A stretch of 19,208 nt of DNA from an uncultured cyanobacterium (GTDB taxonomy: Bacteria; Cyanobacteriota; Cyanobacteriia; Cyanobacteriales; FACHB-T130): positions 1 to 19,208 of the forward strand of contig CAKZHE010000145.1 of NCBI GenBank assembly GCA_936920195.1, given 5' to 3'. This document shows positions 2,385 to 19,208 of this stretch, one piece after another. Numbering within the stretch: position 1 is the stretch's first letter; each line of letters opens with the position of its first letter. A program made the position numbers and the translations under genes. The notes under the pieces are model-generated. The model did no database searches and was not told the origin of the DNA. It saw only the letters and a program-made list of their open reading frames with translations.

Positions 2385-2396
2385 TCCAGGGTAAAC

Positions 2397-3978: not shown

Positions 3979-3993
3979 ATCATAGAAAATACA

Positions 3994-4150: not shown

Positions 4151-4879
4151 TTGAATTTTGAATTGATAACAATGAAGCCATATCAACAAGTTCCCATTGA
4201 AGAATGCCAAGAAGCCTTAGTAGCAATTCCTCTGGAAAAATTTGCCGTTGAGTCGCCCCATCCCTACGAAAAACTGGGTGCGCCCTACGGAGAGAAATCG
4301 CCCTATTATCTCCGTCAAAGCGTCCTCGCGGCTCTTGAGCAAGCTCAAGATAATTTAGCAGAATATCGTCCCGGCTGGCGAATTCAAATTTTTGATGCCT
4401 ATCGCCCGATTGCCGTCCAACAATTTATGGTTGATTATACTTTTAATCAACTTGTCCAGGCTCAGGGACTGAAAATAGCCGAATTAAGTACCCCTCAGCA
4501 ACAAGAGATTCTAGAACAGGTTTATCAATTTTGGGCAGTTCCCAGCCACAACCCTGCTACCCCACCCCCCCACAGTACCGGGGCTGCCATTGATATTACC
4601 TTAGTCGATGGGACAGGCCAACCAGTAGATATGGGTTCAGCGATTGATGAAATTTCGCCCCAATCCCATCCCCACTACTTCGATCAAAAAACTCTGCCCA
4701 AAGAACTGGAATATCGCGATCGCCGTCATCTATTGTGGAAAGTGATGCACTTGGCAGGATTTCAGCGCCACCCCAATGAATGGTGGCATTTTTCCCTGGG
4801 CGATCAAATGTGGGCGTGGCTGTGCCAAAGGGAAAACCCAGCATTTGCAACTGTAGCTCGCTACGGTCGAGTAAAATAG
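4151..4879 (+). CDS. ddpX: D-alanyl-D-alanine dipeptidase (VanX/DdpX, peptidase M15D)
   Basis: 242-aa ORF. VanX family motifs are present: FDAYRP, the zinc-ligand motif HSTGAAIDITLVD, and EWWHFS. The true start may be the internal Met at 4172 (MKPYQQ). Confidence 0.85.
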   Translation: MNFELITMKPYQQVPIEECQEALVAIPLEKFAVESPHPYEKLGAPYGEKSPYYLRQSVLAALEQAQDNLAEYRPGWRIQIFDAYRPIAVQQFMVDYTFNQLVQAQGLKIAELSTPQQQEILEQVYQFWAVPSHNPATPPPHSTGAAIDITLVDGTGQPVDMGSAIDEISPQSHPHYFDQKTLPKELEYRDRRHLLWKVMHLAGFQRHPNEWWHFSLGDQMWAWLCQRENPAFATVARYGRVK

Positions 4880-4912
4880 CTGGATAACTTCAGTGAAATT
4901 AATTTACCCATC

Positions 4913-5281
4913 GTGGCAGCATCCATGCGCGTTTACATCTTGCTATTCAATGCCCGGAAAGAAAACGAAGGTATTCATACCATCCGGATTGGCGATCGCA
5001 ACCGAGTGCTAATGTTCGAGTCAGAAGACGATGCGACTCGTTTTGGTTTAATGTTGGAAGCTCAGGATTTTCCCTGTCCTGAAGTCGAACCAATTGATGC
5101 CGACGAAGTGCGGGAATTTTGCCAAAGTGCTGATTATGAGTGGCAACTTGTGCCAGAAGGCGCTTTAGAGCTACCGCCAGAAACCAATCTGGAAGTAACT
5201 GACTGGCAACCAGAGGTCAAAAAACCAGATTTATCTGATGACCTGGACGACATTCGCCGCCAACTGGAACGATTATTGTAG
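4913..5281 (+). CDS. DUF3110-family protein (conserved in cyanobacteria and plastids)
   Basis: 122-aa ORF. MRVYILLFNARKENEGIHTI matches the DUF3110 N-terminal signature, and the C-terminus is acidic. The probable true start is the Met at 4925. Confidence 0.65.
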   Translation: MAASMRVYILLFNARKENEGIHTIRIGDRNRVLMFESEDDATRFGLMLEAQDFPCPEVEPIDADEVREFCQSADYEWQLVPEGALELPPETNLEVTDWQPEVKKPDLSDDLDDIRRQLERLL

Positions 5282-5298
5282 TACCGAAAAATATAGGC

Positions 5299-6213
5299 AT
5301 GGCAAATCTGGAAGAACGGGGGCATTTGCTGACAGAGCAGATTAATCCCAACAGTCAAAATTTAGATCAACTAACGTCTTTGGAATTAGTCGATCTGTTT
5401 AATCGGGAAGATGCTCAAACTCTAGCAGCGATCGCATCTGCCCGCCATCAGTTAGCCCAAGCCATTGACTTGATTGCCGAGGCACTGCGGCACGGGGGCA
5501 GATTATTTTACATCGGAGCGGGGACTAGCGGACGTTTAGGCGTGTTAGATGCGGCAGAATGTCCGCCGACGTTCTGTTCGCCCCCGGAACTGGTACAGGG
5601 GATTATCGCTGGGGGAGCGGCAGCGCTATTACGCAGTTCCGAAGAGTTGGAAGATAAAGCTGAAGATGGAGCCGCTGCGATCGCCCAAAGGCATATTACC
5701 CAATTAGATGTCGTTGTGGGCATTACTGCTGGGGGAACTACTCCCTATGTCTTGGGAGCCATCCAAGCTGCCCAACAACGGGGAGCCGCTACAGTTTACA
5801 TTGCCTGCGTTCCCGCCGATCAAGTTGCCATCGAAACCGACATTGATATCCGGCTGCTGGTTGGTCCGGAAGTAGTCGCCGGATCGACTCGTCTAAAAGC
5901 CGGAACTGTGACTAAAATGGCTTTGAATATCCTTTCCACCGGGGTCATGGTCAAGTTAGGCAAAGTCTACGGCAATCGGATGGTGGATGTAGCGGTGACA
6001 AATAAAAAGCTTCACGACCGGGCTTTAAGGATGTTACAAGATTTGACCAATCTCAGTCGAGAAGAAGCTGCTTATTTGCTCGAACAAAGCGGCAGATCGG
6101 TAAAATTAGCCTTATTAATGCACTGGACAGGTTTAGGCAAAGAAGAAAGCGATCGCCTACTGACCAAATATCAAGGTAATCTCAGATCTGCTGCCCTAAG
6201 TTATCAAAAATGA
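5299..6213 (+). CDS. murQ: N-acetylmuramic acid 6-phosphate etherase
   Basis: 304-aa ORF. SIS-domain signature RLFYIGAGTSGRLGVLDAAECPPTF. The catalytic-region motifs GSTRLKAGTVTKMALN and LKLALLM are typical of MurQ. Confidence 0.9.
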   Translation: MANLEERGHLLTEQINPNSQNLDQLTSLELVDLFNREDAQTLAAIASARHQLAQAIDLIAEALRHGGRLFYIGAGTSGRLGVLDAAECPPTFCSPPELVQGIIAGGAAALLRSSEELEDKAEDGAAAIAQRHITQLDVVVGITAGGTTPYVLGAIQAAQQRGAATVYIACVPADQVAIETDIDIRLLVGPEVVAGSTRLKAGTVTKMALNILSTGVMVKLGKVYGNRMVDVAVTNKKLHDRALRMLQDLTNLSREEAAYLLEQSGRSVKLALLMHWTGLGKEESDRLLTKYQGNLRSAALSYQK

Positions 6214-6259
6214 AGGTTTGTAAAACTTGAGCCAACCCAATTAGCACCCACAAAAAACT

Positions 6260-6402
6260 CCCTATCTTCCCTATCTTCCCTATCTTCCCTATCTTCCCTA
6301 TCTTCCCTATTCCCCATTCCCTATCTTCCCTGTTCCCTGTTCCCTGTTCCCCGTTCCCTGTTCCCTCTTCCCTGTTCCCTGTTCCCTATTCCTATTCCCT
6401 AT
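6260..6402. repeat. heptanucleotide tandem repeat array (TTCCCTA / TTCCCTG variants; STRR-like), ~20 units
   Basis: Direct reading: ccctatcttccctatcttcc...ccctgttccctgttcc...ccctattcctattccctatt. It lies immediately upstream of the ATG at 6410. The plus strand is polypyrimidine. Confidence 0.9.
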
Positions 6403-6409
6403 TAAAAAA

Positions 6410-7921
6410 ATGTTTACTGCATCAGAAACTACCGCCACAGTTTTAATCGTATTAGTCGCTTTAGGCATTCTCGGTTGGGGCTTTTATCGTGCTAAACCCT
6501 TCGGTAAAATCGGCATCCTAGCCTGGTTGCAATCCGTAGCCCTGATGACTCCCTGGCTATTATTTTTCGGCTTATTTGCCGCCGGAATTTACATCAATTT
6601 AGTTGGCATTCTCTTGCTGCTAATTGTTTCCACTGGTTTGTATATCTTCTTGGGCAGTAAACTGCGAGCCGCTAGTCAAGATTTGGGATTGAGAGAACAG
6701 GTGGCTCGCGCTGTCAGAGAGCGACAAGAATCATCAAATCAACCTACTGAGGCAAGTGCCGCGACAACTCCACCTACAGATCCTCTCAAAGTCGAAGTTG
6801 TGCCAATTCCCGATGAAGATTTGAAAAAGATTCAGGGAATTTTTGGGTTTGAAACCTTTTTTGCTACAGAAACTATACCCTATCAGGATGGGGTGATTTT
6901 TAACGGCAATCTGCGGGGGGAACCAGCAACAGTCTACGAACGACTATCTGCTAGTTTAAAAGAAAGATTGAGCGATCGCTATCGGTTATTCCTGATTCAA
7001 AATCCCGAAGAAAAACCCGTAGTCATTATCCTCCCCAGCAGCAACCAACCTCAACCCAGTACCACTGCTCAAAAAGCTTTAGCCGTAGCTCTTTTCCTGG
7101 CTACCGTACTTACCAGCTTAGAAACAGCCAGTTTTTTACTCGGTTTTAGTTTATTTGATAACTTCAATCGTCTCCCCGAAGCCTTACCCCTAAGCTTAGG
7201 TTTTTGGGTAGTCTTAGCCGCCTACGAAATTGGACGGCGATGGGTAGCCAAACAAGAAAAAGTTAGCCTCAGTTGGCCTTTGTTTATTCCCACCGTTCAA
7301 ATTGGATCTTTTGGAGCCATTGTTCGATTTGAATCCCTGCTCCCCAACCGCAGCACCCTGTTTGATATTGCCCTAGCCGGACCCGCAGCCAGCGCGATTA
7401 TTTCAGTCATCATGTTACTAACTGGCTTATTGCTTTCTCATCCCGGCAGTTTATTTCAGATTCCATCGGAGTTTTTTCAAGGCTCAATTTTAGTTGGCAG
7501 TTTGGCTCGCGTTGTCCTCGGTTCGGCTCTCCATCAAACGATTGTTGATATTCACCCGCTAACTGTAATTGGCTGGTTGGGTTTAGTAATTACCGCCTTA
7601 AACTTAATGCCTGCCGGACAACTGGATGGAGGGCGAATTATCCAAGCTATTTACGGACGAAAAATTGCTCGTCGCTCTACCGTTGCCACCCTAATTATTC
7701 TGGGGATTTTATCATTTGCAAATCCCGGCAATCCTTTAGTTTTATATTGGGCGATTGTCATTCTCTTTTTGCAACGGGATTTAGAACGGCCTAGTTTGAA
7801 TGAACTTTCGGAACCAGATGATGCTAGAGCCGCTTTAGGATTATTAGCATTGTTTTTAACCATTGCCACACTCTTACCCCTAACTCCCGGATTAGCTGGT
7901 CGTCTGGGAATTGGCGGATAA
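6410..7921 (+). CDS. site-2-protease (peptidase M50) family membrane protein, EGY-like, with a degenerate zinc-binding motif
   Basis: 503-aa polytopic ORF. The conserved third motif NLMPAGQLDGGRI (NxxPxxxLDGG) is present. Where HExxH is expected, the sequence reads LAAYEIGRRWVA (H to Y and H to R). Confidence 0.7.
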   Translation: MFTASETTATVLIVLVALGILGWGFYRAKPFGKIGILAWLQSVALMTPWLLFFGLFAAGIYINLVGILLLLIVSTGLYIFLGSKLRAASQDLGLREQVARAVRERQESSNQPTEASAATTPPTDPLKVEVVPIPDEDLKKIQGIFGFETFFATETIPYQDGVIFNGNLRGEPATVYERLSASLKERLSDRYRLFLIQNPEEKPVVIILPSSNQPQPSTTAQKALAVALFLATVLTSLETASFLLGFSLFDNFNRLPEALPLSLGFWVVLAAYEIGRRWVAKQEKVSLSWPLFIPTVQIGSFGAIVRFESLLPNRSTLFDIALAGPAASAIISVIMLLTGLLLSHPGSLFQIPSEFFQGSILVGSLARVVLGSALHQTIVDIHPLTVIGWLGLVITALNLMPAGQLDGGRIIQAIYGRKIARRSTVATLIILGILSFANPGNPLVLYWAIVILFLQRDLERPSLNELSEPDDARAALGLLALFLTIATLLPLTPGLAGRLGIGG

Positions 7922-7929
7922 TATCAATT

Positions 7930-8010
7930 GTAGGTTGGGTTGCGCGACAGCAAAACCCAACAAACTACTTATAAATGTTGGGTTTCCACTGTCGTTCCAA
8001 CCCAACCTAC
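7930..8010. repeat. dispersed hairpin repeat, copy A, present as an imperfect inverted pair (MITE- or terminator-like)
   Basis: gtaggttgggttgcgcgacagcaaaacccaacaaac (7930-7965) is identical over 36 nt to 18978-19013. Its imperfect reverse complement lies at 7977-8010. The unit contains an internal hairpin gttgggtt...aacccaac. Confidence 0.7.
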
Positions 8011-8162
8011 TTTGAGTATTATTGAGATCTGCATCACTAGGCCGAAAGTAAATTATCACTAACCAAACCCCTCTGAAATCCTAGTAAGTCAGGAAAGTCC
8101 CATGAATACTATGAAGTAAAGGGATAATTGCTTTCTCAAGCCCTGCTACTAGAGCCGATTTT

Positions 8163-8744
8163 ATGAATGACTCAGAGTGCCAAGAAGATATCATCGCTGC
8201 CAATGAGGAATCGCTGTTGCAATTGAAGCGATCGCTCATTCTCTCCCAAGGCGATTTTTCGATAATATTGGCTTATTGTCCCTCAAAACGCCTGCGGAAG
8301 CAAATTGCCCAACAGCTACATGAGTCATTAGCGATCGCCATCCAAGATCTTACTCTGCCTCCGTCTGCCCAAACGCTATATACTACAATTTATCATGCTC
8401 TGCCCGAACCCCATCCCGAAGCCTTGATGGTATTTGGTTTAGAGTCTGTGGTCAATATTGAAGAATTGTTAGTTGCCACCAACTTTGTCCGCGACGAGTT
8501 TCGCAAGCAATTTTCTTTTCCCCTAGTTCTGTGGGTTAATCAAGAAATTTTACAAAAAATGATTCGGCTCGCCCCAGATTTTAAGAATTGGACAACCACA
8601 GCGATTCGCTTTGAACGAGTCTGCAATAAAGTAGTGGATTTTCCCCATCGTCCCAGCACCTCAACCAAGAGGAGAAAAAAGGCTAAACATAGTTTACCAC
8701 CAATCCAACGCCGATATGATGACGATCGCCCAATCAGTTTATAG
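8163..8744 (+). CDS. hypothetical protein (193 aa) with a basic C-terminal tail
   Basis: ORF track. Coding-like composition. It is convergent with the 8746..9495 ORF and their stop codons abut. From memory, the motif block GDFSIILAYC...LMVFGLESV...FPLVLWVN...LAPDF resembles an N-terminal module of large cyanobacterial multidomain proteins. This is unverified. Confidence 0.5.
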   Translation: MNDSECQEDIIAANEESLLQLKRSLILSQGDFSIILAYCPSKRLRKQIAQQLHESLAIAIQDLTLPPSAQTLYTTIYHALPEPHPEALMVFGLESVVNIEELLVATNFVRDEFRKQFSFPLVLWVNQEILQKMIRLAPDFKNWTTTAIRFERVCNKVVDFPHRPSTSTKRRKKAKHSLPPIQRRYDDDRPISL

Positions 8745-8745
8745 T

Positions 8746-9495
8746 TTATCGCCTTCTCCGTTTAGTTCTTGTGGGACGTTCTGAGCGATACTCCCGCTCA
8801 TCATCGGGATATTCTAACTGGCGGCTAACTTCAGCAAAAAGATCTCTTCGCAGATAGGGATAGTCGCTTACCCACAAATTACGATCGGGAATATAAATAT
8901 CAGAAGTTTTGACAATGCTGCTGAGATCTCCCCGGTAGGACATAACTAGCATCTCCGCAATTAAACCTGGTGCGATCGCTTTGTGTTCCCGACGCAAAGG
9001 AACTTGCAATTGGGTAGTAAATCCGGTTTCATCTCCTACTTCAATATTCAGCCTGCGTTCGCGATTTTCGACAATTACTAATTGGCCTTTTTTATTAACA
9101 GTTTCTTCTTCCCCAATCAACTCTTCGGTAATGTAGATATCTAAAACTTGACCGCGCCAAAAGCCACTATAGGGGAGTTTGCGATTGCTGGCATTGCGAA
9201 TGCTCGCCCATAATACGGGACCCCACAACCAGTATAAACCAAGAAAAATCCCAATTAAAAATAGGATGCCTTCGGAATCTTCCCCCAAAAATGACCGGAG
9301 CAGCAGCAAAACGACGATCCCGACTACCGAAATCAACAGTCGTTTTAAAAAATCTGGAAATTTCCCCCAATAGAAGGTGTACTGAGGGCCAGTCGCCATC
9401 AGGGGGATAATCTGTTCAAATTTTTTGCGGGTTAAGGGGATGAGCATAAGGCCAGAAGCGACTAAAAAGCCAATAATTTTAATTATAACAAACAC
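8746..9495 (-). CDS. hypothetical membrane protein: 3-4 N-terminal TM helices, a soluble C-terminal domain and an Arg-rich tail
   Basis: 249-aa ORF. Its start lies 22 nt downstream of the GH3 gene stop on the same strand, so it is probably the last gene of the operon. Confidence 0.55.
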   Translation of the reverse strand: MFVIIKIIGFLVASGLMLIPLTRKKFEQIIPLMATGPQYTFYWGKFPDFLKRLLISVVGIVVLLLLRSFLGEDSEGILFLIGIFLGLYWLWGPVLWASIRNASNRKLPYSGFWRGQVLDIYITEELIGEEETVNKKGQLVIVENRERRLNIEVGDETGFTTQLQVPLRREHKAIAPGLIAEMLVMSYRGDLSSIVKTSDIYIPDRNLWVSDYPYLRRDLFAEVSRQLEYPDDEREYRSERPTRTKRRRR

Positions 9496-9517
9496 TTTGT
9501 TGAAAATGACTATCAGT

Positions 9518-11044
9518 TTAAAAAAGGGATTTCAATGTTTGTAGCAGTGTATCATTAATGGGGGTTGCGGTCAAAATTGGATGTTTAATTCCGCCCCAAA
9601 TACTCCCGTTACGAACGCGGTCTAATGCTAAAATTTCAGGAATGCGATCGCCTATCAAAACCTGGGTTGGAGCAAGTTGCTCGAGCAGTCTGGCGCGGCG
9701 ATAGTGGATGGATTGGGATAAGAGATTATCCAAATCTTGAGCAATGATATCTGGGGTTTGGATGGCTGAATCTAGTAACAGGATATAGTGCGGGGGATGG
9801 GCAACGGGAACTAAGGTTTTAAAACAGTTTTCTGGCAAGTTTAATTGATTTAATACCTGATGAACAAAGGTTTCTTGAAGTTTTTCGCCAACTAAATCGC
9901 TAATAGAGCTATCGCGCCCTAGAAATTCTAAGCAAGGAGTGTTGTGATACCAATGGGTGACGCGAATGCGATCGCCAATCCGATAGCGATATAAACCGCC
10001 TTTTTGGGATAGGATAATAGTGTATTCCTGCCCGGTGCTGAGTTCGGGTAATTTGTATAAATTGCCAGCATTATCTTCAAACTCAAAAAAAACTTCATCT
10101 AAAACTGGTACATATCCCTCGGCGGCAATTAAGGGAATTGTCATGGGAGCTTCGGTAGCTAATAAACCTTTGCCTTGAATAAATACGCCGGGAAAGTGCG
10201 ATCGCAGTCCTTTAGCTTGATCGGCGGCATTAGCACTATCCCAACAAGAAATTAGTTTTAAATTTGACCAAAGTTCTGTCCAAGGAATATTAGGCTCTGT
10301 TAGCAGTTGTAGACGATGGGCAGAAAGGCGATCGCGCAATTCTGCTTGTAATAACAGATGATTTTCTTGAATATATTTTAAATGGACTTGCAAAAAACTG
10401 GGACTCCAAACAGAAATAATTTCGAGATTTTCTGCCTGTAATAAGGCTAAACAAAGTTGATGTTTAAACCTTTGGGGATCGCGGAGGCGATTAAGTCCAG
10501 CAGGCATGACTAACCAAGGGCGCAACAGCCACTGCAACCAACTATCTAAATAGTCTAAATCATCTTGCAAAGATAGGGGGCGATCTGCGGAGGAATTGGC
10601 TGAATCTAATTGAGGGGAAATACAAGCATAAAGTTTTCCGGTGGAGAATTTCGGTCCATGTTGAATTAAATCCTGCGCCCAGATACAAAACATCTGGTTA
10701 AATGATTTCCGCAGGGAACGAGTATAGGGAATCCATTTAACTGCCCCGCTACTACCAGAAGTTTTTTCATAAAATAAGATTTGTTCGGGAGTTAGGGGAA
10801 TTTTATTTGGTTTAGAATCAGTTAAAATCCAAGGTTCAATGGTATCATAATTCACAATGGGAACGCGCTGCCAATCGGCAACAGAATTAATTCCCAAGAA
10901 TTGACCATACTGGCTAAAAATTAGGCGATCGCAGATATTTTGTTGGACGGCGGCTTGAGTTAATTCGGGGTGATTGAGGGCTTGCTGAAATCGGCGAGCC
11001 GTTGGGGTGAGAACCTGCCCAAAAAGCTGAATAAACTTCCGCAT
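9518..11044 (-). CDS. GH3-family acyl-acid amido synthetase (adenylate-forming; JAR1/GH3-like)
   Basis: 508-aa ORF. GH3 motifs are present: EKTSGSSGAVKWIPYT (the SSGTxxGxxKxIP box) and GLYRYRIGDRIRV (the YRYxxGD box). Confidence 0.78.
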   Translation of the reverse strand: MRKFIQLFGQVLTPTARRFQQALNHPELTQAAVQQNICDRLIFSQYGQFLGINSVADWQRVPIVNYDTIEPWILTDSKPNKIPLTPEQILFYEKTSGSSGAVKWIPYTRSLRKSFNQMFCIWAQDLIQHGPKFSTGKLYACISPQLDSANSSADRPLSLQDDLDYLDSWLQWLLRPWLVMPAGLNRLRDPQRFKHQLCLALLQAENLEIISVWSPSFLQVHLKYIQENHLLLQAELRDRLSAHRLQLLTEPNIPWTELWSNLKLISCWDSANAADQAKGLRSHFPGVFIQGKGLLATEAPMTIPLIAAEGYVPVLDEVFFEFEDNAGNLYKLPELSTGQEYTIILSQKGGLYRYRIGDRIRVTHWYHNTPCLEFLGRDSSISDLVGEKLQETFVHQVLNQLNLPENCFKTLVPVAHPPHYILLLDSAIQTPDIIAQDLDNLLSQSIHYRRARLLEQLAPTQVLIGDRIPEILALDRVRNGSIWGGIKHPILTATPINDTLLQTLKSLF

Positions 11045-11652
11045 TATTCCACCTTTTCATTAATATAAAGTGTGGTCTGAAATTCTATATAAGCGCGATC
11101 GCCAATTTCTGTTCCTGGACCAAGATGGGAACCCGCACCTAGAAAAACATCATTGCCAACTTTAACTTTTTTCAGATATAACATTAAGTTTTGTTTGCGG
11201 GGTTTGATAATGTGAGAACACATGATCACGCGATGTCCAACCAGAACGCGATCGCCAATTTCTATGAAACCGCGATCGGCAATCTCTAATCCCGGAGTCC
11301 AATAAACATTTTTCCCCACCTTCGCTCCCCAAAGTCGCAACCACCAGGAAAATACCCCTGGAATTAGCCGCAGCACCACCTCTAACGCTGGAATTGCAAT
11401 ATAAATAGCTTGAATTTGATGACTGCCCCACCAAGGGCTATAATCCTTACTTAGCAAATAACTAATTCCCTCCTGGACAGGATAGAAATATTGATGCCAT
11501 CGGTACACTAGCAATGGGAATCCATAGAGAGAAAATAACACAGCCAAAAGACCAAATATACTCTGTGAATGCACCCAATAAACTATTGATGCTCCAGTTA
11601 AAAGTAACACTGAAGCCGGAAAAAACAAAAGAACTTTGCTGAGAAAAGTCAT
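11044..11652 (-). CDS. membrane-anchored hexapeptide-repeat (left-handed beta-helix) acyl/acetyltransferase
   Basis: 202-aa ORF. Two N-terminal TM helices. The C-terminus carries LbH repeats: IGDRVLVG, VGNDVFLGAGSHLGPGTEIGDRAYI. Its start overlaps the GH3 stop by 1 nt. Its stop is 2 nt from the upstream gene. Confidence 0.6.
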   Translation of the reverse strand: MTFLSKVLLFFPASVLLLTGASIVYWVHSQSIFGLLAVLFSLYGFPLLVYRWHQYFYPVQEGISYLLSKDYSPWWGSHQIQAIYIAIPALEVVLRLIPGVFSWWLRLWGAKVGKNVYWTPGLEIADRGFIEIGDRVLVGHRVIMCSHIIKPRKQNLMLYLKKVKVGNDVFLGAGSHLGPGTEIGDRAYIEFQTTLYINEKVE

Positions 11653-11653
11653 A

Positions 11654-12406
11654 TTATTTAAAAGGAAAAAAAAGCTTTTTGGTCAATGTTAGGGGTGTGG
11701 TAATTCCGATTTCTGCTGGCAAATCTTTCCCTGGATAAAATGTCCCATGCCATCTATCCCAGAGTTTAAAGTTAGCCCCATAATTGTAGTAGTGAACGCT
11801 ACAAGCATGATGACGAGCATGATCTTGGGGTAAAATTAGCCAAGGCGAGAGGTAGGAGTAGAGCCAACTATGGGGAGAAATAATCAATCGGCTATGTCGC
11901 CATAAATCCAAGGCTGAAGTTAGGCTAATTCCCAAAAGATAGCCTGTGGAATCAGCGAGTAGATATAAAAACAGGGCATGAATCCACAAATAAATAATTA
12001 AAAAACTTGCCCACAGAGTATTTCTAGATGTGCCGAAAACATCCATTTGAGTAACAGTATGATGAGTTTGATGAACTTGCCAAAACCATCCCCTATGCAA
12101 TAAACGATGATTCCAGTAATACCCATAATCGACTACCACGAAACTGAGGATAAAAGTAAAAATTGGCGATAATTGTAGACATCCCTGTTGAGCAGGCAGT
12201 AAATAATTATAAAGTTGATAAATCAAGGTAATTTGCAGCAGGGGAATTAACATTCCTTGAATAGATAATCCGGTACTATCTAGCAGCCAATCTTGCCAAC
12301 TTTTCGTTTTAAGTTGAGTTCTAGCCACGCGATCGCAGATTGTCCAGATTATCAAGCTCCCAAAAACTATTAAAACTAAAAGTTGGGTAAACATTGGCAT
12401 ATTCAC
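11654..12406 (-). CDS. fatty acid hydroxylase superfamily (sterol desaturase / FA hydroxylase, membrane di-iron) enzyme
   Basis: 250-aa hydrophobic ORF. Three His boxes: HRLLH (HX3H), HQTHH (HX2HH) and HARHH (HX2HH). Confidence 0.8.
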   Translation of the reverse strand: MNMPMFTQLLVLIVFGSLIIWTICDRVARTQLKTKSWQDWLLDSTGLSIQGMLIPLLQITLIYQLYNYLLPAQQGCLQLSPIFTFILSFVVVDYGYYWNHRLLHRGWFWQVHQTHHTVTQMDVFGTSRNTLWASFLIIYLWIHALFLYLLADSTGYLLGISLTSALDLWRHSRLIISPHSWLYSYLSPWLILPQDHARHHACSVHYYNYGANFKLWDRWHGTFYPGKDLPAEIGITTPLTLTKKLFFPFK

Positions 12407-12409
12407 ACC

Positions 12410-13432
12410 TCAAACCCAAAAGGTAACTTTAACTGATTGGTGGGAAAGCGATCGCGGATCTTCTCCAGCAGCGATCGCGTCTCGAATTGATTCGACAAAG
12501 ACATGAATTGTATCTGCTGGAGTATTCTGAAATTTTGTGCCATATTTGGCGATCGCCTCACCCTGAATCCCCAATATTTTCACATCTTGTCCAATAATAT
12601 GTTGTGCCGTCCACCAGACAAACGGACGAGCAAACCAATTCCAAATCCCATAATTATAAGTGACATCTGTATAAACCAAAGTTGTATTATCTGTTTCTGG
12701 AATCGATTGGCTAGTAATCAACAAACGGCGATTTTTTCCCATTTTATATTCCACAGAGGTAATATTGGGCATATAAAAGCGATCGATATGCTCAATCTTA
12801 GTTCCTTGGGCATTGAGAAAACCAGCATACCAACCTAAATTGGTTGTTTCATTCTGATATTCTACCAACACGCTACCATCTTTTCGCTCGACAGTCATCT
12901 CTAGTTTTTGCTTACGAGAAGTCCGAAAAACTCCGGGATGAACAGAAGCCGTATGGGGAATATCAATAAAGTTTTCGGCACAATTAGTCACATTGTTCTG
13001 AAAACGATTAATTACTCGGACTGTTTCCCAACCTGGTTGTCCATAATAAGGCATAGGAAAAGGCGTAAAATCTTCGCTGCTGCTATCGGCTAACCGGACA
13101 TAAACATAGCCATCCTGTTCTTTGGTAGCATAAACCTTGGCTTGCCGATGGGGAGAAGGTTTAAAATTATCACCTTCCGAGGGAACAGCAATTACCTTGC
13201 CATGACTATCATATACCCACCCATGATAAGGACATTGCAAAGCATGATTACAAACTTTTCCCACCGACAAACGGCTATTACGATGCAAACAGCGATCGCG
13301 CAATGCCACAGGTTCGCCATTTTCGCCGCGAAATATTGCCAGCCACTCTCCTAAAACGGTTCTTGCTAGTACCGTCTTTGGTTGCAGTTGTTCGCTCAGT
13401 GCTATAATATACCAGAAATCTTCAAATTTCAT
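12410..13432 (-). CDS. Rieske [2Fe-2S] non-heme iron oxygenase (alpha-subunit-like; KshA/PAO/SxtT-type size)
   Basis: 340-aa ORF. Rieske motif CLH-X16-CPYH (RCLHRN...QCPYHGW). Mononuclear iron motif NCAENFIDIPHTASVHPG (E/N-x2-D-x2-H-x4-H). Confidence 0.8.
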   Translation of the reverse strand: MKFEDFWYIIALSEQLQPKTVLARTVLGEWLAIFRGENGEPVALRDRCLHRNSRLSVGKVCNHALQCPYHGWVYDSHGKVIAVPSEGDNFKPSPHRQAKVYATKEQDGYVYVRLADSSSEDFTPFPMPYYGQPGWETVRVINRFQNNVTNCAENFIDIPHTASVHPGVFRTSRKQKLEMTVERKDGSVLVEYQNETTNLGWYAGFLNAQGTKIEHIDRFYMPNITSVEYKMGKNRRLLITSQSIPETDNTTLVYTDVTYNYGIWNWFARPFVWWTAQHIIGQDVKILGIQGEAIAKYGTKFQNTPADTIHVFVESIRDAIAAGEDPRSLSHQSVKVTFWV

Positions 13433-13477
13433 GCTGGTTAGTTGGCAAAGTCGAAGACAATGATATCATTATAAATT

Positions 13478-13768
13478 ATGACATTACAGGAATTGCAAAA
13501 ACAGGTATTGCATTTACCAATTAGCGATCGCTGTATATCTACTCTTTCTAATGAACGAATTTTAGCACTGACAGAACTAGAAATGGCAGCAGATCAAGAT
13601 GCTCGGTTGAGTGAATTACTCGATCGCCAGCAGGCAGGCATTCTTGCCGAAAATGAGTTTCCAGAGCTACAAATTCTTATGCAGACTTATCAAGAAGGAT
13701 TATTGCGGAAAGCAATTGCCCTCAGTGAAGCTGTTAAACGTGGATTAATTGAACCTTTGAGCCAGTGA
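13478..13768 (+). CDS. hypothetical small protein (96 aa), on the opposite strand in the gap between the ferredoxin and Rieske genes
   Basis: ORF track. It occupies a 374-bp gap with no competing minus-strand ORF. It is helical and Glu/Leu-rich. It weakly resembles small addiction-module / antitoxin-like components (MTLQELQKQVLHLPISDR...). This is unverified. Confidence 0.35.
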   Translation: MTLQELQKQVLHLPISDRCISTLSNERILALTELEMAADQDARLSELLDRQQAGILAENEFPELQILMQTYQEGLLRKAIALSEAVKRGLIEPLSQ

Positions 13769-13806
13769 ATCAGATTTCTGAACAAGTCCGAATACAAGAA
13801 TGTGAT

Positions 13807-14133
13807 TTATTGTTTTATTCGGCGAATTTCAAGATTATTCGTTAGGTTAATTTGGCAGGCTAATCGAGCATTTGGATTTTCGGGATATAATGTATCTAGC
13901 ATCTCTTGTTCATCCGGTTGAGGGGGAGAAATATCGCCAATTACCTCAACCAAACAAGTCCCACAAATTCCCGTTCGGCAACCAAACAATAGCGGTGAAT
14001 TGCGAATATTGAGATGCTCAGATAAATTTTGATGCGCTGACAGAATTACCGGAGGATATTCTGTGCCTGGAAAGTAAATCGTACATTGCTCAGACATGGC
14101 AAAAATTCTCCCGCTCAAACCGTTCAAAAGCAC
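13807..14133 (-). CDS. plant-type [2Fe-2S] ferredoxin (electron donor for the Rieske oxygenases)
   Basis: CX4CX2C...C motif: GCRTGICGTC ... ARLACQ. The likely true start is the internal Met (MSEQCTIYF) at about 14097. That would reduce the overlap with the upstream gene to a few nt. Confidence 0.75.
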   Translation of the reverse strand: MLLNGLSGRIFAMSEQCTIYFPGTEYPPVILSAHQNLSEHLNIRNSPLLFGCRTGICGTCLVEVIGDISPPQPDEQEMLDTLYPENPNARLACQINLTNNLEIRRIKQ

Positions 14134-15301
14134 TCTGTTGTGTTGCCAAATATCGGGGAATGGAATTACCTGCCATTAAAGACATTTCTCGATTCCTTTT
14201 CCACAAATAATCCAATTTTTCGATATAGACTTTATAAGATGCCATCGCCTCTTGATGAGTCAAAAAACTTCGGTGTAACCCTTCCGATTCTTCCAGAAAA
14301 CAGCGCCGCATCATCGCTTTGGCATCTCGATCGCTCATTTCAAAAATAGGCGATCGCAACACCCGATAAATCTTACCATACAGGGCGGGATCGTACCAAA
14401 AAATCCCATTAATCGCCGCTGAAAAGTGAAAATGATCCCGCTGACATCCCAGCAAACCTAAATTAGCTACCAGACTTTCAAAAGCTGTTGGCGGTGCTAA
14501 ACAGGTAATTACATCCTGAGAAACAATTGTGGAACTATTGAAATGAAAGCTTTCATCTAGAAAGTGATAATAAGAAATTTGGGCGGGAATCGGAGCCTGT
14601 TCTTGATGGGGATGCTTTTGATAATAATTACTGAGTTTGTGCTGAACAAGTTTGCCATTCAGAGTTCGCACCCCCCGCACCGTGAAATACTGACAAGCCA
14701 AGAAAGTATTATTGGCAGAAATTAGCCCAAAATACTGTAATTGGATCTTTTTCCACCAGGCTTTTAAGGCATTTGTATCGGCAAATACCATTGTTTCGGT
14801 AAAGGGTCCCCGCATCGGATAAGTGAAAATTAGCTCTCCAAATAAAGCCTGTTCAACCTGTTTAGAAATTGTCCGAAAGGCATTGATATGAGCGCGTTCT
14901 TGGGAGGATTCCAAATCTAACGTATCGCAAATTAATCGAAAGTCTTCCTGGGCATAAAGTCCGGTAGCACTGGTTTGATTAAAGAAAATAGTGGCAATTT
15001 CCGCCGAAACTATTTGGGAATAATATGCCACCCAATAAAGTTGATTTAAAATTACTCGTTGCTGGGGGCTAGCTTGTTCCCATAAAGGCGTACCATAGAG
15101 TAAGGAAAACTCCTCTGGATTCCAATATTCATCCCGGCAATCTTCATACCGAAACTTGCCTACTGTTTCATCCATCAAAGCCGTATGATCTTGTTGCTGG
15201 TTACGGTTGTGGTTAATTTGCAACTTCCGATATACTAGGGAACTACTAGATAATTGAGCAGGAGCTAGTGACATAGAATTAGCTGTTTTTAAAAAACACA
15301 T
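14090..15301 (-). CDS. dimetal-carboxylate (ferritin-like) oxygenase. It is AurF-type N-oxygenase-like, or possibly CylC-type halogenase-like.
   Basis: 403-aa ORF. EXXH motifs at QERAH and DESFH, with upstream carboxylates (SAEIATIFF). It overlaps the upstream ORF by 13 nt. The probable start is Met10 (MSLAPAQ). Confidence 0.5.
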   Translation of the reverse strand: MCFLKTANSMSLAPAQLSSSSLVYRKLQINHNRNQQQDHTALMDETVGKFRYEDCRDEYWNPEEFSLLYGTPLWEQASPQQRVILNQLYWVAYYSQIVSAEIATIFFNQTSATGLYAQEDFRLICDTLDLESSQERAHINAFRTISKQVEQALFGELIFTYPMRGPFTETMVFADTNALKAWWKKIQLQYFGLISANNTFLACQYFTVRGVRTLNGKLVQHKLSNYYQKHPHQEQAPIPAQISYYHFLDESFHFNSSTIVSQDVITCLAPPTAFESLVANLGLLGCQRDHFHFSAAINGIFWYDPALYGKIYRVLRSPIFEMSDRDAKAMMRRCFLEESEGLHRSFLTHQEAMASYKVYIEKLDYLWKRNREMSLMAGNSIPRYLATQQSAFERFERENFCHV

Positions 15302-16191
15302 TGATGAGCAGGTAACGGTTGAAAAGCGCCGCGATTTTCCAGACTTTCTACAATTGATTGTACCGAGTCTCCAACCATGAGCGATCGCAACAGATCCAAT
15401 CTCGTCCGACTATGATTTTCCGTATCCAATTCTTGCAAAATTTGAATCTTCTGCTTCCGGGAAAGATGTCCTTTCACCTGTTCAATTGCCCCCAACACAT
15501 TTTGAGGTCCCACTTGCACCATCAACAAAAACCGTGACAACAAATCAATGATATTTCCTCGACTAGATGGTGACAGGGAAATTTGATGAAACAGAATATT
15601 TCCGGTACTGTGATGTCGCGCTTCTGCTTGCAAAAAACTCCGAAACACCTCTGCCAAAGGTTGATGATGACATTCTTTCGCCAGTCGGCGGTAATGGCTC
15701 AATCCCCATCCTTCCAAAACCACTTGCAGCACAAACAATAATACCGTTTTATCCGCATCTTCAATGACTTCTGCCAGTAAAGATAAAAACGGATCTTGAC
15801 TATTAGTTAGTTCTGATTCTGGACAGAAATAGCTCAAATGACTAAGATGAATAGTTTCATCAGCCGTAAACAATCCATAAAGCATCCGCTCCTCAATTGT
15901 TTCTGCTAGCAATACCATTTTCGCCATATAGCCCACCCCAGCTTTTTCGATGAAATATGCCTCTTCTAAAAGGCTGCGATTGGCAATTTCTACCATCGCC
16001 AATTGTTCGGCTGTACTAGCTTCTTGAAAAATTTTTACTTGGGGCAAATTAAAAAATGAAGCATCCCAATAAGTAGCGGGCAAATTGGGAGAATTTTTGC
16101 TGCCATTCTGATTTGGTAATGCCGCTGCCAGCACTTTCCGCAATCGGTTATCAGCATTGATATGGGGCAAATCAATTTCAAGCATTGGCAA
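15289..16191 (-). CDS. ferritin-like di-iron carboxylate protein (second putative oxygenase)
   Basis: 300-aa ORF. Twin E...EXXH pattern: LEEAYFIEKAG ... ADETIHLSH and VLEGWG ... QAEARHH. It is not ADO and not AcsF (see rejected). Confidence 0.5.
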   Translation of the reverse strand: MPMLEIDLPHINADNRLRKVLAAALPNQNGSKNSPNLPATYWDASFFNLPQVKIFQEASTAEQLAMVEIANRSLLEEAYFIEKAGVGYMAKMVLLAETIEERMLYGLFTADETIHLSHLSYFCPESELTNSQDPFLSLLAEVIEDADKTVLLFVLQVVLEGWGLSHYRRLAKECHHQPLAEVFRSFLQAEARHHSTGNILFHQISLSPSSRGNIIDLLSRFLLMVQVGPQNVLGAIEQVKGHLSRKQKIQILQELDTENHSRTRLDLLRSLMVGDSVQSIVESLENRGAFQPLPAHQCVF

Positions 16192-16197
16192 TCCTAA

Positions 16198-17247
16198 TTA
16201 GTTTTCCGAAAAAGAATGAGAGCGTTCAAGTTTATCCTGGCTTTCAACAGCTTGCCATGTCCCCCAAGTCAGGGCTTTTTGGTGATTAACGTGCTGAATA
16301 AATTGTAAAATTGAGCGATCGGCAATTGTGGGAGTTTTGAGATCGAATTGAATTGTTTGAAATACTTGAGTATCTCCAGTAGCAAAGTAATTTCCTACCT
16401 GCTGAGTTACCCAAAGTAAAAACCGATTCACCGCCCATCCCCAACATCCCAACCGCTTAGGTGTCACCAGAATAGTTTGCCCTTCAGTTTTACCATCCTC
16501 CATCATTCTTAGGGCAAATATAATATAGAAATGCAGAAGATCTGGACCGAGGGTGACAGTTCCCGTACTACCATACCAATAGCACATACTATAGGTAACT
16601 TCCTGACGGTATAGAGGACGAATTAAACGGATTAACCAAGATTCATCTCCTCCCCGCGTAGTATTGCTAAAAGTCACTGCATTAGGATTGAGATCTTGCT
16701 GTTCAAAGACAATTTTCAAAGGTAAATTGTGGACGGTATTAAAGTGATGAGCATCAATGGCATTAATCAGTAAGACATTAGGATGGCAATTTTTAATAAA
16801 GTGAGTTCCCAAAATATAATCGCAATCTATTTCTGCTAATTCCGGAACAAAAGGTAACGAACTTGGCATTTCTTCTCCTGCCCAAACCCAAATCATCCCA
16901 TATTTTTCGGCGGTATGCCAGGTTTTGAGACATACAGGTAAAGGATTTTTTTGTGAGGGAATATCTACACAAATTCCCTGCTCGTTATATTTCCAATTAT
17001 GGAAAAAGCAGCGAATACCATCGCCGTCTACTTTGCCTTCCGCTAGATGAGCGCCCATGTGCGGGCAATAGGCATCTATCGCCACCACTTTACCGCTATT
17101 TCCGCGATAAATGGCTAAGTTTTTGCCTAGTAGCTTCAGGGGTTTAACTTGGCGGATTTTTAATTTTCGGGATGGTAGCGCCCAGTACCATCCCTCAACG
17201 AATTGGCAGGGATTATTGAAGGTGGATTGTGCTATAGTAGAAGACAT
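16198..17247 (-). CDS. Rieske [2Fe-2S] non-heme iron oxygenase, first gene of the cluster
   Basis: 349-aa ORF. Rieske motif CPH-X16-CFFH (YCPHMGAHL...IRCFFHNW). Iron motif NAIDAHHFNTVH (D-x2-H-x4-H). Confidence 0.8.
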   Translation of the reverse strand: MSSTIAQSTFNNPCQFVEGWYWALPSRKLKIRQVKPLKLLGKNLAIYRGNSGKVVAIDAYCPHMGAHLAEGKVDGDGIRCFFHNWKYNEQGICVDIPSQKNPLPVCLKTWHTAEKYGMIWVWAGEEMPSSLPFVPELAEIDCDYILGTHFIKNCHPNVLLINAIDAHHFNTVHNLPLKIVFEQQDLNPNAVTFSNTTRGGDESWLIRLIRPLYRQEVTYSMCYWYGSTGTVTLGPDLLHFYIIFALRMMEDGKTEGQTILVTPKRLGCWGWAVNRFLLWVTQQVGNYFATGDTQVFQTIQFDLKTPTIADRSILQFIQHVNHQKALTWGTWQAVESQDKLERSHSFSEN

Positions 17248-17509
17248 CTCTTTATTTAAAATTTCAATTATACAACAATAGTGATGTGCCTTAACTCAAT
17301 CTATGGCAATGAGCGATCGCCGTCCCATTAAGCAGATACGTCATCCACTCAGAATCCCCGCAACTTTATCGCTGTTATGCGTGCCACAAATTCATCGCCA
17401 CCATCTTCAAAAGGTTCTATTATTTTAAATATAGCGATCGCTTTTAGCAATCTAGCAATGTTACGATGCTGTTACGATCGCATCCAGTTCCGCTATTGAT
17501 GGTTGAAAC

Positions 17510-18946
17510 ATGGATAAAAACAGTCCAGAAAATACCTATCGGCAACAAGTTCTGCAAGAACAAGAAGAAGTTGCTCGTCAGTTGAAAAAAAACAGCATCA
17601 ATGCCCCACAGTCCTTGGCATCGGGGAGTAACATTAGAGGAATTACCCAGACAAATAAAGCGATTGATTATCGCATTACGGGCTTTTGGTTCTGGCGTAG
17701 TGTGGTTGTTCCGCCTAATGTTTATGTGATTCATACCAGACAAGGAAAGAGCGAACCCATCCATATTGGCATGGGCATTTCCTTCCGCTTCAATCCCCTG
17801 AGCGATGCCTTTCTGGTCATCCCCTCCTCCGTACAAACTATCCTAATTAATGCTAATTGTATTTCTATTGAGCGACAAGGGGTATTAGTCCAAGCTTACC
17901 TGCAATGGATTATTGGCGATATCAAAATCGCCTACTGGAAATTGGATTTTTCCGATCCTGGCGATCCGATGGGCATTGTCAATTTGCAACTGAAAGAACA
18001 AGCTGAAGCTGCGATTAAAGATAAAGTTGCTACCATGAGTATTGACGAGATTCTCAGCGATAAACAACCGATTATTGAAGAACTAACTCGTCGGTTGAAA
18101 GCAGTTGCTGAGGGCAGTAGAGAAGACAGCGGGACATCGGGTGGATTAGGGTTGAAAATTGTCACAATTCAGATTAAGGAAGCTGTAGTAAGTTCGACTC
18201 GATTGTGGCAAAATCTGCAAGCTCCTTTTCGTGCCGAAAGAGAAAGATTAGCGCGTCTGGCAGAATTAGCGAGCCATCAAGCGATCGCTGCTCAAGAATT
18301 GGAAAACCAGATTACTTCCCAAAGATCGGAATTAAATGCCCAAAGCGAACTTGAACAACTGCGCTCTGAACAAGATCGCCGGAAGTACGATCGAGAACAG
18401 AGCGAAAATCAGCGCCGTCACTCCCTTGAACAAGAGGCAGCCCGACAAAAACTGATCGAAGAAAATCAAACTATTCAGGCACGTAATGAAGCTAAATTAG
18501 CATTAGTTCTCCAAGAATTAGAGTTGGAAAAACGCAAGATTACCGCAGAAATTGAGCAAGTAGAACAGCAAATGCAGTTAGATGCAGTGGAACGACAAAA
18601 AGAACTGGCAAAAATTACGGCTGAACTGGAAATTAAAGAGAGATATAATTTAGCTGAATTTACCCAGAAGCGAAGGGAATTGGTATTGGCTAAACAACAG
18701 CAGGACATTGAAAACGATCTTTCAGCAACTTATCTACAATCGGAATTAATTGCTAAGTTGCCCGAAATTGCCGAAAACCTGCCGACTGCCCAAGAACAAC
18801 GCACAACCATTATTGCCACTGATGGCAAAGAGGGGGGAGGAATGACGCAATTATTAACTTTTGTTGCCAGCGCCCTGAGTTTAACCCAAAATTTTCTGAG
18901 CCAAGCTAATTCAGGAAATCAAAGTATAGAAAAGGTCGATGAATAA
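17510..18946 (+). CDS. flotillin-like SPFH/band-7 domain protein with a long EA/Q-rich coiled coil
   Basis: 478-aa ORF. SPFH-like N-terminal half (VVVPPNVYVIHTRQGK...). Flotillin-type C-terminus: LIAKLPEIAENLP...TTIIATDG. It lacks the N-terminal TM hairpin typical of FloT. Confidence 0.75.
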   Translation: MDKNSPENTYRQQVLQEQEEVARQLKKNSINAPQSLASGSNIRGITQTNKAIDYRITGFWFWRSVVVPPNVYVIHTRQGKSEPIHIGMGISFRFNPLSDAFLVIPSSVQTILINANCISIERQGVLVQAYLQWIIGDIKIAYWKLDFSDPGDPMGIVNLQLKEQAEAAIKDKVATMSIDEILSDKQPIIEELTRRLKAVAEGSREDSGTSGGLGLKIVTIQIKEAVVSSTRLWQNLQAPFRAERERLARLAELASHQAIAAQELENQITSQRSELNAQSELEQLRSEQDRRKYDREQSENQRRHSLEQEAARQKLIEENQTIQARNEAKLALVLQELELEKRKITAEIEQVEQQMQLDAVERQKELAKITAELEIKERYNLAEFTQKRRELVLAKQQQDIENDLSATYLQSELIAKLPEIAENLPTAQEQRTTIIATDGKEGGGMTQLLTFVASALSLTQNFLSQANSGNQSIEKVDE

Positions 18947-18977
18947 GAAATGAAAAATCAATAACTTCATTATAATC

Positions 18978-19023
18978 GTAGGTTGGGTTGCGCGACAGCA
19001 AAACCCAACAAACCACTTAATCA
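18978..19023. repeat. dispersed hairpin repeat, copy B
   Basis: Identical over 36 nt to 7930-7965, and similar through acttaW. It lies directly downstream of the flotillin stop and just upstream of the IS left end. Confidence 0.7.
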
Positions 19024-19029
19024 AAGCGC

Positions 19030-19208
19030 GATCGCCCTACTTTTATCAGAGAAATGGGTTTTAAACCCCGTCCTTCTAGGACGGCTTGATATTTCTTGAT
19101 TTTTTGCCCCAATTCTATGCTAAAATAGTCCCGATAAAATTCAGCCCAACCATGTTAGTTCTCGAAGCCAAACTCAAAGGTAAAACAGAGCAGTACGGAC
19201 TCATAGAT
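19030..19208 (+). mobile_element. IS200/IS605-family (IS1341-type, tnpB-only?) element: left end plus the 5' part of tnpB, truncated by the window edge
   Basis: Subterminal hairpin ccgtcc-ttcta-ggacgg (around 19068-19084). The tnpB start follows about 70 nt later. Confidence 0.55.
19152..19208 (+). CDS. tnpB: TnpB/OrfB (RNA-guided endonuclease of the IS200/IS605 family), N-terminal 19 codons only
   Basis: ATG at 19152. The translation MLVLEAKLKGKTEQYGLID matches the highly conserved TnpB N-terminus (MLxxxYKLKxxxxQ). Confidence 0.6.
   Translation, partial: MLVLEAKLKGKTEQYGLID

Follow-up and report, generated by a model that had tools for sequence, protein, structure and literature searches.

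The locus described here raises two questions: whether a tightly packed run of redox enzymes, an acyltransferase and a GH3-family amido synthetase is a known system, and what such a set might make with no scaffold synthase beside it. The run lies on a 19,208-nucleotide (nt) stretch of DNA from an uncultured cyanobacterium (contig CAKZHE010000145.1, positions 1 to 19,208; the whole stretch is referred to below as the window). A sequence-only reading of the window had proposed nine genes that together oxidise and conjugate a pre-existing lipophilic substrate, and had not recognised them as a described cluster. We find that the operon is almost certainly a member of the orphan 'Rieske-containing' class of CylC-homologue clusters, which is also the 'cluster f' of the ferredoxin gene fed6. 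It is a reduced copy of an already catalogued orphan class and not a new kind of system. New here are the membership of the GH3 enzyme, a Glu-to-Gln difference in the CylC-like clade, the GNAT fold of an sll0263-like protein found upstream in relatives, and the reduced copy itself.

Gene content and identity of the operon

Nine co-oriented open reading frames (ORFs) span positions 8746–17247 on the minus strand of the window. All had been located correctly by the sequence-only reading, and the domains that it had listed were confirmed by Pfam and NCBIfam profile searches. Numbered g9 to g1 in the direction of transcription, the first ORF encodes a Rieske non-haem-iron oxygenase alpha subunit of 349 amino acids (aa) (g9, 16198–17247; Pfam Rieske, 2e-22), and is followed by a ferritin-like putative diiron protein of 300 aa, or 298 aa in the metagenome annotation (g8, 15289–16191), a 403-aa CylC-like dimetal-carboxylate enzyme of halogenase family PF28091 (g7, 14090–15301) and a [2Fe-2S] ferredoxin of 96 aa as called (g6, 13807–14097; Fer2, 1e-8), the ORF of which reaches 14133 if a GTG start is taken (13807–14133). 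Beyond a variable spacer of 374 nt (13433–13806) lie a second Rieske oxygenase alpha subunit of 340 aa with a VanA_C catalytic domain (g5, 12410–13432; Rieske, 5e-22; VanA_C, 2e-8), a 250-aa membrane protein of the fatty-acid hydroxylase/sterol desaturase superfamily (g4, 11654–12406; PF04116, 2e-23), a 202-aa membrane-anchored left-handed beta-helix (LbH, hexapeptide) acyltransferase (g3, 11044–11652; Hexapep, 6e-11), a 508-aa GH3-family acyl-acid amido synthetase (g2, 9518–11044) and a 249-aa membrane hypothetical protein (g1, 8746–9495). The successive junctions from g9 to g1 measure +6, -13, -8, +374, +3, +1, -1 and +22 nt. The overlaps of 1–13 nt reported earlier are present (13 nt between g8 and g7, 8 nt between g7 and g6), as is the one 374-nt gap. 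Two ferritin-like dimetal-carboxylate proteins had also been reported; both g8 and g7 are of the diiron type by sequence, but the placement of g7 specifically in the CylC halogenase family had been missed. The lack of a scaffold synthase was borne out, with no polyketide synthase (PKS), non-ribosomal peptide synthetase (NRPS), fatty acyl-AMP ligase (FAAL), acyl carrier protein (ACP) or terpene synthase among the Pfam assignments of the 19 largest ORFs of the window.

This arrangement has been catalogued twice. Cassier-Chauvat and Chauvat (2014; PMC4284462) described the same gene order as the conserved 'cluster f' around the ferredoxin fed6 (ssl2559). Eusebio et al. (2021, BMC Genomics; PMC8406957) sorted 95 CylC-homologue clusters into seven architectures, the commonest of which was 'Rieske-containing' (n = 36); their Table S4 gives the order in Calothrix brevissima NIES-22 as DUF962, Rieske, hypothetical, Rieske, ferritin-like diiron, CylC-like, ferredoxin, Rieske, sterol desaturase and acyl transferase. 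The window shares with these clusters the series Rieske, ferritin-like diiron, CylC-like, ferredoxin, Rieske, sterol desaturase family and acyl transferase, and they likewise have a single CylC homologue, lack a carrier protein and occur in Nostocales and Oscillatoriales. Several organisms recur in both data sets (numbers of our loci in brackets): Nostoc sp. LEGE 12447 (L057), Nostoc sp. LEGE 12450 (L019) and Microcoleus PCC 7113 (L085) appear in Fig. S4 of PMC8406957, and Tolypothrix tenuis PCC 7101 (L012) in its Table S1 of cylC homologues. The published class has two to four Rieske proteins, whereas the window copy has two, without sll0263-like and DUF962/Mpo1-like genes at the locus. In Synechocystis PCC 6803 the orthologues are dispersed over sll0263–sll0266, ssl2559–sll1297 and sll1510–sll1511 (PMC8406957, Table S4): g9 belongs to the sll0264 class, g8 to sll0265, g7 to sll0266, g6 to fed6 (ssl2559), g5 to sll1297/'pobA', g4 to sll1510 and g3 to sll1511. 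We identify the window operon with the published orphan cluster because g7 carries PF28091, because gene content and order match both descriptions, and because of the synteny reported in the next section. The earlier view that the cluster is undescribed is therefore superseded.

Conservation and boundaries of the unit

Using the GH3 protein g2 as the seed for a scan of 185,579 species genomes, we recovered 80 cyanobacterial loci at 55–76% identity, from Nostoc, Calothrix, Tolypothrix, Microcoleus, Microseira, Planktothrix, Microcystis wesenbergii, Tumidithrix, Leptolyngbyaceae, Rivularia and others. Synteny was assessed by tblastn of all window proteins against these loci, and the full set was counted over the 66 loci whose upstream flank reaches 8.5 kb or more. 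All eight genes from g9 to g2 occur in identical order and on the same strand in at least 43 of these 66 loci, with a span of 7.4–11.5 kb (7.7 kb in the window) and the order Rieske, ferritin-like, CylC-like, ferredoxin, Rieske, fatty-acid hydroxylase, transmembrane (TM) LbH acyltransferase, GH3. The count is a lower bound, since insertions in many of the remaining loci push upstream genes past the 10-kb flank. Eight-gene synteny extends over Nostocales, Oscillatoriales, Microcystis, Tumidithrix and Leptolyngbyaceae, and a co-occurrence of this extent far exceeds chance, in agreement with the proposal that the genes form one functional unit. To escape the circularity of seeding with GH3, we also sought loci via the 403-aa g7 protein; all three of these control loci (Crinalium PCC 9333, Allocoleopsis/Microcoleus PCC 7113 and Laspinema) end with fatty-acid hydroxylase, LbH acyltransferase and GH3.

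We treat g2–g9 as one unit because its ORFs overlap or nearly abut, and because copies of the HIP1 octamer (GCGATCGC) are distributed evenly across the cluster and the sequence on either side of it. The 32 copies in the window, against 0.15 expected, confirm that the window is cyanobacterial in origin, with no sign of recent foreign acquisition. Genes 3' of GH3 differ from genome to genome, which places the 3' boundary of the unit at GH3. The conserved unit thus comprises eight genes, at 9518–17247, and the nine-gene boundary drawn by the sequence-only reading has to be moved, as g1 does not travel with the others. GH3 is the conserved terminal member. It is not mentioned in PMC8406957 or PMC4284462 (the term 'GH3' appears zero times in the former and its supplement), and its membership is new here. 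At the 5' end, the divergent intergenic region between g9 and a Band-7 gene (17248–17509) presumably holds the promoter; promoter and terminator scans of the window gave matches not above shuffled expectation, with only weak sigma-70-like matches in this region, and neither an Rfam family nor a tRNA was found in the window.

The CylC-like enzyme

CylC, NocO and BrtJ are the dimetal-carboxylate halogenases, which place chlorine on unactivated carbons in fatty acyl chains. A homologue search with g7 returned 1185 relatives, nearly all cyanobacterial and labelled 'AurF' at source, that carry Pfam PF28091 ('CylC-like'). The assignment of g7 to this family is a precomputed one on an identical protein; with a Pfam set that lacks the PF28091 model, g7 gives a weak AurF match (4e-4). 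The family is small, with just 147 representatives in a HMMER scan of 1.84 billion representative proteins. Searches of the PDB by sequence and by profile with g7, g8 and a 241-aa family yielded nothing useful.

Identity between g7 and the characterised CylC, NocO and BrtJ, the enzymes of the cylindrocyclophane, nocuolin and bartoloside systems, is about 30–37%, and g7 shares with them PF28091, the QExxH and HxxDExxH motifs and the helix-1 glutamate. We aligned g7 with representatives of the 450–470-aa CylC clade and with AurF-like proteins, and counted residues at each position over 120 close homologues. g7 retains E101, Q134-E135-H138 (QExxH) and H246-D249-E250-H253 (HxxDExxH), and both motifs are found in all 120 close homologues. 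Together the two motifs cover seven of the nine residues that are conserved and essential in NocO/CylC (PMC12101540); the other two, E101 and the position of Gln220, were assigned here by alignment. On this alignment g7 keeps eight of the nine signature residues of dimetal-carboxylate halogenases, the helix-1 Glu included. By contrast, at the ninth position (NocO E252, AurF E196) g7 has Gln220, in a gap-free stretch 11 residues past the invariant Arg209; 117 of the 120 close homologues likewise have Gln here, whereas the representatives of the CylC clade and of the AurF-like proteins have Glu. The g7 clade also differs from the 450–470-aa CylC clade by the absence of an insertion of about 50–60 aa. 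The genomic partners differ as well: FAAL, ACP, PKS, CylK and BrtB, which accompany CylC, NocO and BrtJ, are lacking here, with Rieske, fatty-acid hydroxylase, LbH and GH3 proteins instead, and no gene with a PP-binding or AMP-binding (FAAL) domain was found in the window or related loci.

Gln220 may hard-wire the open coordination site that has been proposed to take chloride; alternatively, it may be the sign of a different chemistry. We put the chance that the g7 clade halogenates at a little under even. The strongest competing explanation keeps the same operon and makes members of the g7 clade diiron hydroxylases, desaturases or other oxidases, so that the product would be purely oxygenated; we regard this as a serious possibility that nonetheless falls short of probable. 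It draws support from the near-invariant Gln in place of the CylC/NocO and AurF-like Glu, together with the observation that NocO E252A retains its iron and loses chlorination (PMC12101540). The missing insertion is consistent with it, as are the position of the g7-type clade as sister to all characterised halogenases, with no characterised member of its own (PMC8406957), and the lack of any reported halogenated metabolite from Synechocystis, which has sll0266. Halogenation is favoured by the eight signature residues that are kept, including QExxH, typical of halogenases, in which Gln takes the place of the Asp of AurF. If the carboxylate at the seventh ligand position is lost, moreover, the site proposed to bind chloride would be left open, and a Gln there could still hydrogen-bond the neighbouring His.

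The partner enzymes

Judged by their sequences, the metal-binding motifs of the cluster enzymes are intact. Both Rieske proteins carry CxH...CxxH and (D/E)xxHx4H, in g9 as CPH..CFFH and DAHHFNTVH, and g9 is 61–84% identical to, and syntenic with, its counterparts in other cyanobacteria. Its best PDB match is the 3-ketosteroid 9alpha-hydroxylase KshA (5e-24), followed by SxtDIOX/SxtT (1e-19 to 6e-20); g5 matches SxtDIOX (4e-24), NdmA (2e-21) and DdmC (6e-19). Among NCBIfam models both score best with the 4beta-methylsterol monooxygenase SdmA, reaching about 74 bits (cut-off 600), mainly over the Rieske domain.

The ferredoxin g6 has the motif CxxxxCxxC...C. We consider it a candidate dedicated reductant of the diiron enzyme because g6 overlaps g7 and because the CylC-like/Fer2 pair recurs on its own. 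In that case a CylC-like gene with 36% identity is directly followed by a Fer2 gene (L089:10001–11511) among two-component regulators, with no Rieske, fatty-acid hydroxylase or GH3 genes nearby and with neighbours that do not look cyanobacterial. The diiron–ferredoxin pair thus appears to be a minimal conserved module.

The second diiron candidate, g8, has no Pfam match at 0.01, and its own sequence reaches Ferritin_2 at E = 0.055. Across its family, Ferritin_2 is matched by 34 of 35 members, MiaE by 15 and rubrerythrin by 12; residues E82, E112xxH115, E160 and E190xxH193 are invariant, and the NCBI name is 'ferritin-like domain-containing protein'. The AlphaFold model of g8 is poor (predicted local distance difference test, pLDDT, 57.7), and a fold search on that model was uninformative. 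We also considered g8 and g7 as an alpha/beta-type paralogous pair, like PaaA/PaaC or the subunits of bacterial multicomponent monooxygenases, but an hhalign family-against-family probability of 0.5% leaves this idea unsupported.

Of the last three enzymes, g4 and g3 are predicted membrane proteins. g4 has the His boxes HRLLH, HQTHH and HARHH and three predicted TM helices; among NCBIfam models it comes closest to OlsE (53 bits, cut-off 475). g3 has three predicted N-terminal TM helices, and its nearest NCBIfam model is the Pls/PosA NRPS terminal domain (46 bits, cut-off 423). g2 has the N-terminal, middle and C-terminal domains of GH3 (PF03321, 6e-26; PF23571, 1e-16; PF23572, 21.9 bits, just below its cut-off) and the motifs TSGSSG and YRYRIGD, matches JAR1 and GH3.15 in the PDB at 1e-10, and scores 30.2 bits against the OlsH model, the cut-off of which is 620. 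The planctomycete OlsH/OlsI and OlsE ornithine-lipid pathway (PMC12493201) likewise places a bacterial GH3 protein beside an acyltransferase, with a PF04116 lipid hydroxylase, and is a plausible functional analogue. It differs in that OlsI is an alpha/beta-hydrolase where the window has a TM-LbH protein, and in that it has no Rieske, diiron or ferredoxin genes.

A proposed pathway and its alternatives

We propose that the operon makes a fatty-acyl-amide product, and we lean modestly towards this pathway as a whole. It builds on what the sequences show: eight identified and intact enzymes, packed like an operon and conserved together, with no carrier protein or scaffold synthase. In this scheme g6 would supply four soluble iron enzymes (g9, g5, g7 and g8) with electrons from photosynthesis or NADPH. 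Together with the membrane His-box hydroxylase g4, these enzymes would introduce functional groups at unactivated carbons of a fatty-acyl-type chain free of any carrier protein. The reactions would be hydroxylations or desaturations, with chlorination by g7 possible. GH3 would then adenylate the carboxylate and couple an amine or amino acid to it, and the membrane-anchored g3 would acylate a hydroxyl or amino group, as may a GNAT enzyme where one is present. The product would be an oxidised, possibly halogenated lipid of the N-acyl-amino-acid type, in or at the membrane.

A lipid-type substrate is suggested by several lines of evidence. Fatty acyl chains are the substrates of the characterised CylC-family enzymes (PMC12101540, PMC8406957), g3 and g4 are predicted to be membrane-bound, and the nearest named relatives include OlsH and OlsE. 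Accessory genes in relatives encode an Mpo1-like 2-hydroxy-fatty-acid dioxygenase, a GT2/GT21 glycosyltransferase and an amidohydrolase. It was also suggested in PMC8406957 that such enzymes act on intermediates of fatty-acid metabolism without a carrier protein; on the carrier-free part of the scheme, no carrier protein was found in the window or in the relatives examined. The earlier proposal that the set oxidises and conjugates a pre-existing lipophilic carboxylate matches this suggestion and is supported by the enzyme palette.

Several points weigh against the fatty-acyl-amide pathway. GH3 has no cluster neighbours within 10 kb in about eight of the 80 loci, including that of Calothrix brevissima NIES-22, and the cluster genes are scattered in Synechocystis. 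The matches to OlsH and OlsE are far below the curated cut-offs and make the Ols pathway an analogy, not a case of membership. For the Rieske proteins and for g4, the characterised relatives with the highest scores have steroid, alkaloid or aromatic substrates and not fatty acids. The Gln at the NocO E252 position and the sister-clade placement weaken the case for halogenation by g7. Finally, the literature has linked no product to the cluster, so that each chemical step is read from family membership: work on CylC with Rieske proteins, on later CylC halogenases, on GH3 with Rieske proteins in cyanobacteria and on the Synechocystis locus tags gave catalogue or -omics mentions only.

The same matches bear on the nature of the substrate. 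Were it a polycyclic isoprenoid (hopanoid or sterol-like) or a carotenoid acid, its ring or side chain would be oxidised and its carboxyl group amidated by GH3. The KshA match of g9, the SdmA assignment of both Rieske proteins and the sterol desaturase superfamily of g4 are consistent with this. However, the SdmA score is far under its cut-off and comes mainly from the Rieske domain, no cyclase, prenyltransferase or carotenoid gene is linked in the loci examined, and fatty acids are favoured both by the characterised enzymes of the CylC family and by the accessory gene of Mpo1-like type. We therefore consider an isoprenoid substrate unlikely.

A different question is whether g1 belongs to the pathway after all, as an exporter or anchor of the product in a nine-gene unit. 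The gene is co-oriented with the cluster and starts 22 nt 3' of GH3, or about 70 nt from an alternative start (its relatives are annotated from a later start, at 233 aa), with no terminator-like site between, and its product has three predicted TM helices and no Pfam or NCBIfam match. Against this, g1 adjoins GH3 in near-identical metagenome relatives only: it is not found 3' of GH3 in any of the 80 genome loci or the three CylC-seeded loci, where the genes at that place vary. By tblastn, a convergent 193-aa ORF, an M50 protease and the Band-7 gene are likewise never syntenic in the 80 loci. A role for g1 in a nine-gene unit thus seems quite improbable. As a separate observation, g1 (8746–9495, minus strand) and the convergent ORF (8163–8744, plus strand) lie one base apart, have no family match, encode strongly basic C-terminal tails and are both confined to the near-identical metagenome relatives.

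A catabolic or detoxifying ring-hydroxylating dioxygenase system for aromatics would account for the source annotations 'phenylpropionate dioxygenase-like ring-hydroxylating dioxygenase' and 'pobA', and a Rieske oxygenase with a ferredoxin is the classic layout of such systems. However, the window and the three CylC-seeded loci contain no beta subunit, reductase, dihydrodiol dehydrogenase, ring-cleavage dioxygenase or hydrolase. The constant partners are instead an amide synthetase, two acyltransferases and a membrane lipid hydroxylase, and the cluster is conserved over photoautotrophs of varied habitats, all of which makes aromatic catabolism very unlikely.

The resemblance to the saxitoxin-type sxt tailoring set noted by the sequence-only reading stands at the level of families, with SxtT/SxtDIOX among the best PDB matches (g5, 4e-24; g9, 6e-20), the same broad alpha3-type Rieske mono-oxygenase subfamily as SxtT/SxtH/GxtA, and a small ferredoxin and a desaturase-family protein alongside, as with SxtW and SxtD. 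It goes no further, and a remnant or variant of that set acting on a guanidinium alkaloid can be dismissed as extremely improbable, given that KshA, NdmA and DdmC score comparably, that no SxtA, SxtG, SxtB or other core gene was found among the 19 largest window ORFs by Pfam or in the related loci, and that the cluster occurs in very many non-toxic genera.

The reduced copy and the variable genes around it

In most relatives the unit extends further upstream than in the window, with a GNAT-fold gene and a third Rieske gene ahead of the first Rieske gene, both of which the sequence-only reading had overlooked. The former is the sll0263-class 'hypothetical' gene. Of the 41 complete loci, 37 have it ahead of the first Rieske gene, and it is a frequent, not a defining, member of the cluster. 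The model of an sll0263-like protein (pLDDT 90.2) has a GNAT fold, with a Foldseek match to AAC(2') at 7e-6; on this model we assign the product as a predicted GNAT-fold acyltransferase, which is new here.

A metagenome relative that is 96–97% identical to the window over 9565–13533 and 13822–18946 indicates how the window copy came to lack these genes. In this relative the GNAT-like and third Rieske genes lie just past the Band-7 gene (L087:8861–10749); in both strains the Band-7 gene sits in the opposite orientation between the two parts of the cluster. The Band-7 stop codon, at 18946, is the exact point at which the relative and the window cease to be homologous in nucleotide sequence, and the contig of the window strain runs on into a malic-enzyme gene. 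The window derives from metagenome assemblies, and its genes lie in identical form on a 21-kb ENA contig; no remnant of the GNAT-like or third Rieske gene was found in the window or in this contig, and the DUF962/Mpo1-like gene is missing at the window locus. A strain-level rearrangement breakpoint at 18946 thus cuts the cluster short. The window copy is a reduced form, and its pathway would be either shortened or completed in trans.

The 374-nt spacer between g6 and g5 is a second site of variation. In the window it holds a 96-aa ORF on the opposite, plus strand (13478–13768) with no family match; the 96–97% identical relative has a DUF6745 gene instead, and other genomes have PIN-domain, SUKH-like or deaminase-like ORFs. 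The spacer is thus an insertion hotspot within an otherwise tight operon.

Some relatives carry further genes. An accessory module beside the cluster, with a SnoaL-like/CaMKII_AD protein and a GT2/GT21 glycosyltransferase, was seen at three loci (L085:620–6913 in PCC 7113; L073:11581–13088; L078:498–2437). In PCC 7113 the module is extended by genes for an OST-HTH protein, an amidohydrolase, an Mpo1-like/DUF962 protein and a further Rieske protein, divergently transcribed. Its gene content hints at glycosylated or further processed variants of the product. In Crinalium PCC 9333 a classical GNAT gene (PF00583; L084:15794–16303) directly follows GH3, in addition to the upstream sll0263-like gene, and looks like a tailoring step added in that lineage. 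Outside the cluster, the GC content of the window dips to 0.35 at about 2000–3500, over genes for a DUF6175-like and a PDZ-domain protein, compared with 0.41–0.51 elsewhere.

Significance

Expression data from Synechocystis bear on when such a pathway might operate. Phosphate stress raises expression of the ssl2559/sll1297 transcription unit about 32-fold (PMC4195498), induction of ssl2559 requires PhoB (PMC11126600), and sll0266 is repressed under iron deprivation (PMC3516471). Because the fed6/sll1297 unit is induced in a PhoB-dependent manner, a role under phosphate limitation can be suggested. In its most far-reaching form, the proposal would be that cyanobacteria widely make membrane lipoamino acids that have so far gone undetected, poly-hydroxylated and chlorinated N-acyl amino acids or amides formed with a carrier-independent diiron halogenase in which a Glu-to-Gln change would hard-wire the open metal site, and use them, for example, to remodel membranes when phosphate is limiting; we offer this as speculation, and doubtful speculation at that. 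We also considered essentiality of fed6 as a firm sign of a primary function. The gene was once reported to be essential (PMC4284462), and a complete deletion, as fx6, was later obtained (PMC8887894), so this argument was rejected.

The cluster class is the commonest genomic context of cyanobacterial homologues of CylC-type halogenases, and the class is still an orphan. The constant GH3 enzyme and the GNAT-fold upstream protein together narrow the product class to molecules of the acyl-amide type. Should g7 halogenate or oxidise free acyl substrates that are not bound to an ACP, it would be a useful biocatalyst for C–H functionalisation, a prospect also raised by the authors of PMC8406957, and the Glu-to-Gln difference offers a way to ask why some diiron enzymes halogenate and others oxygenate.

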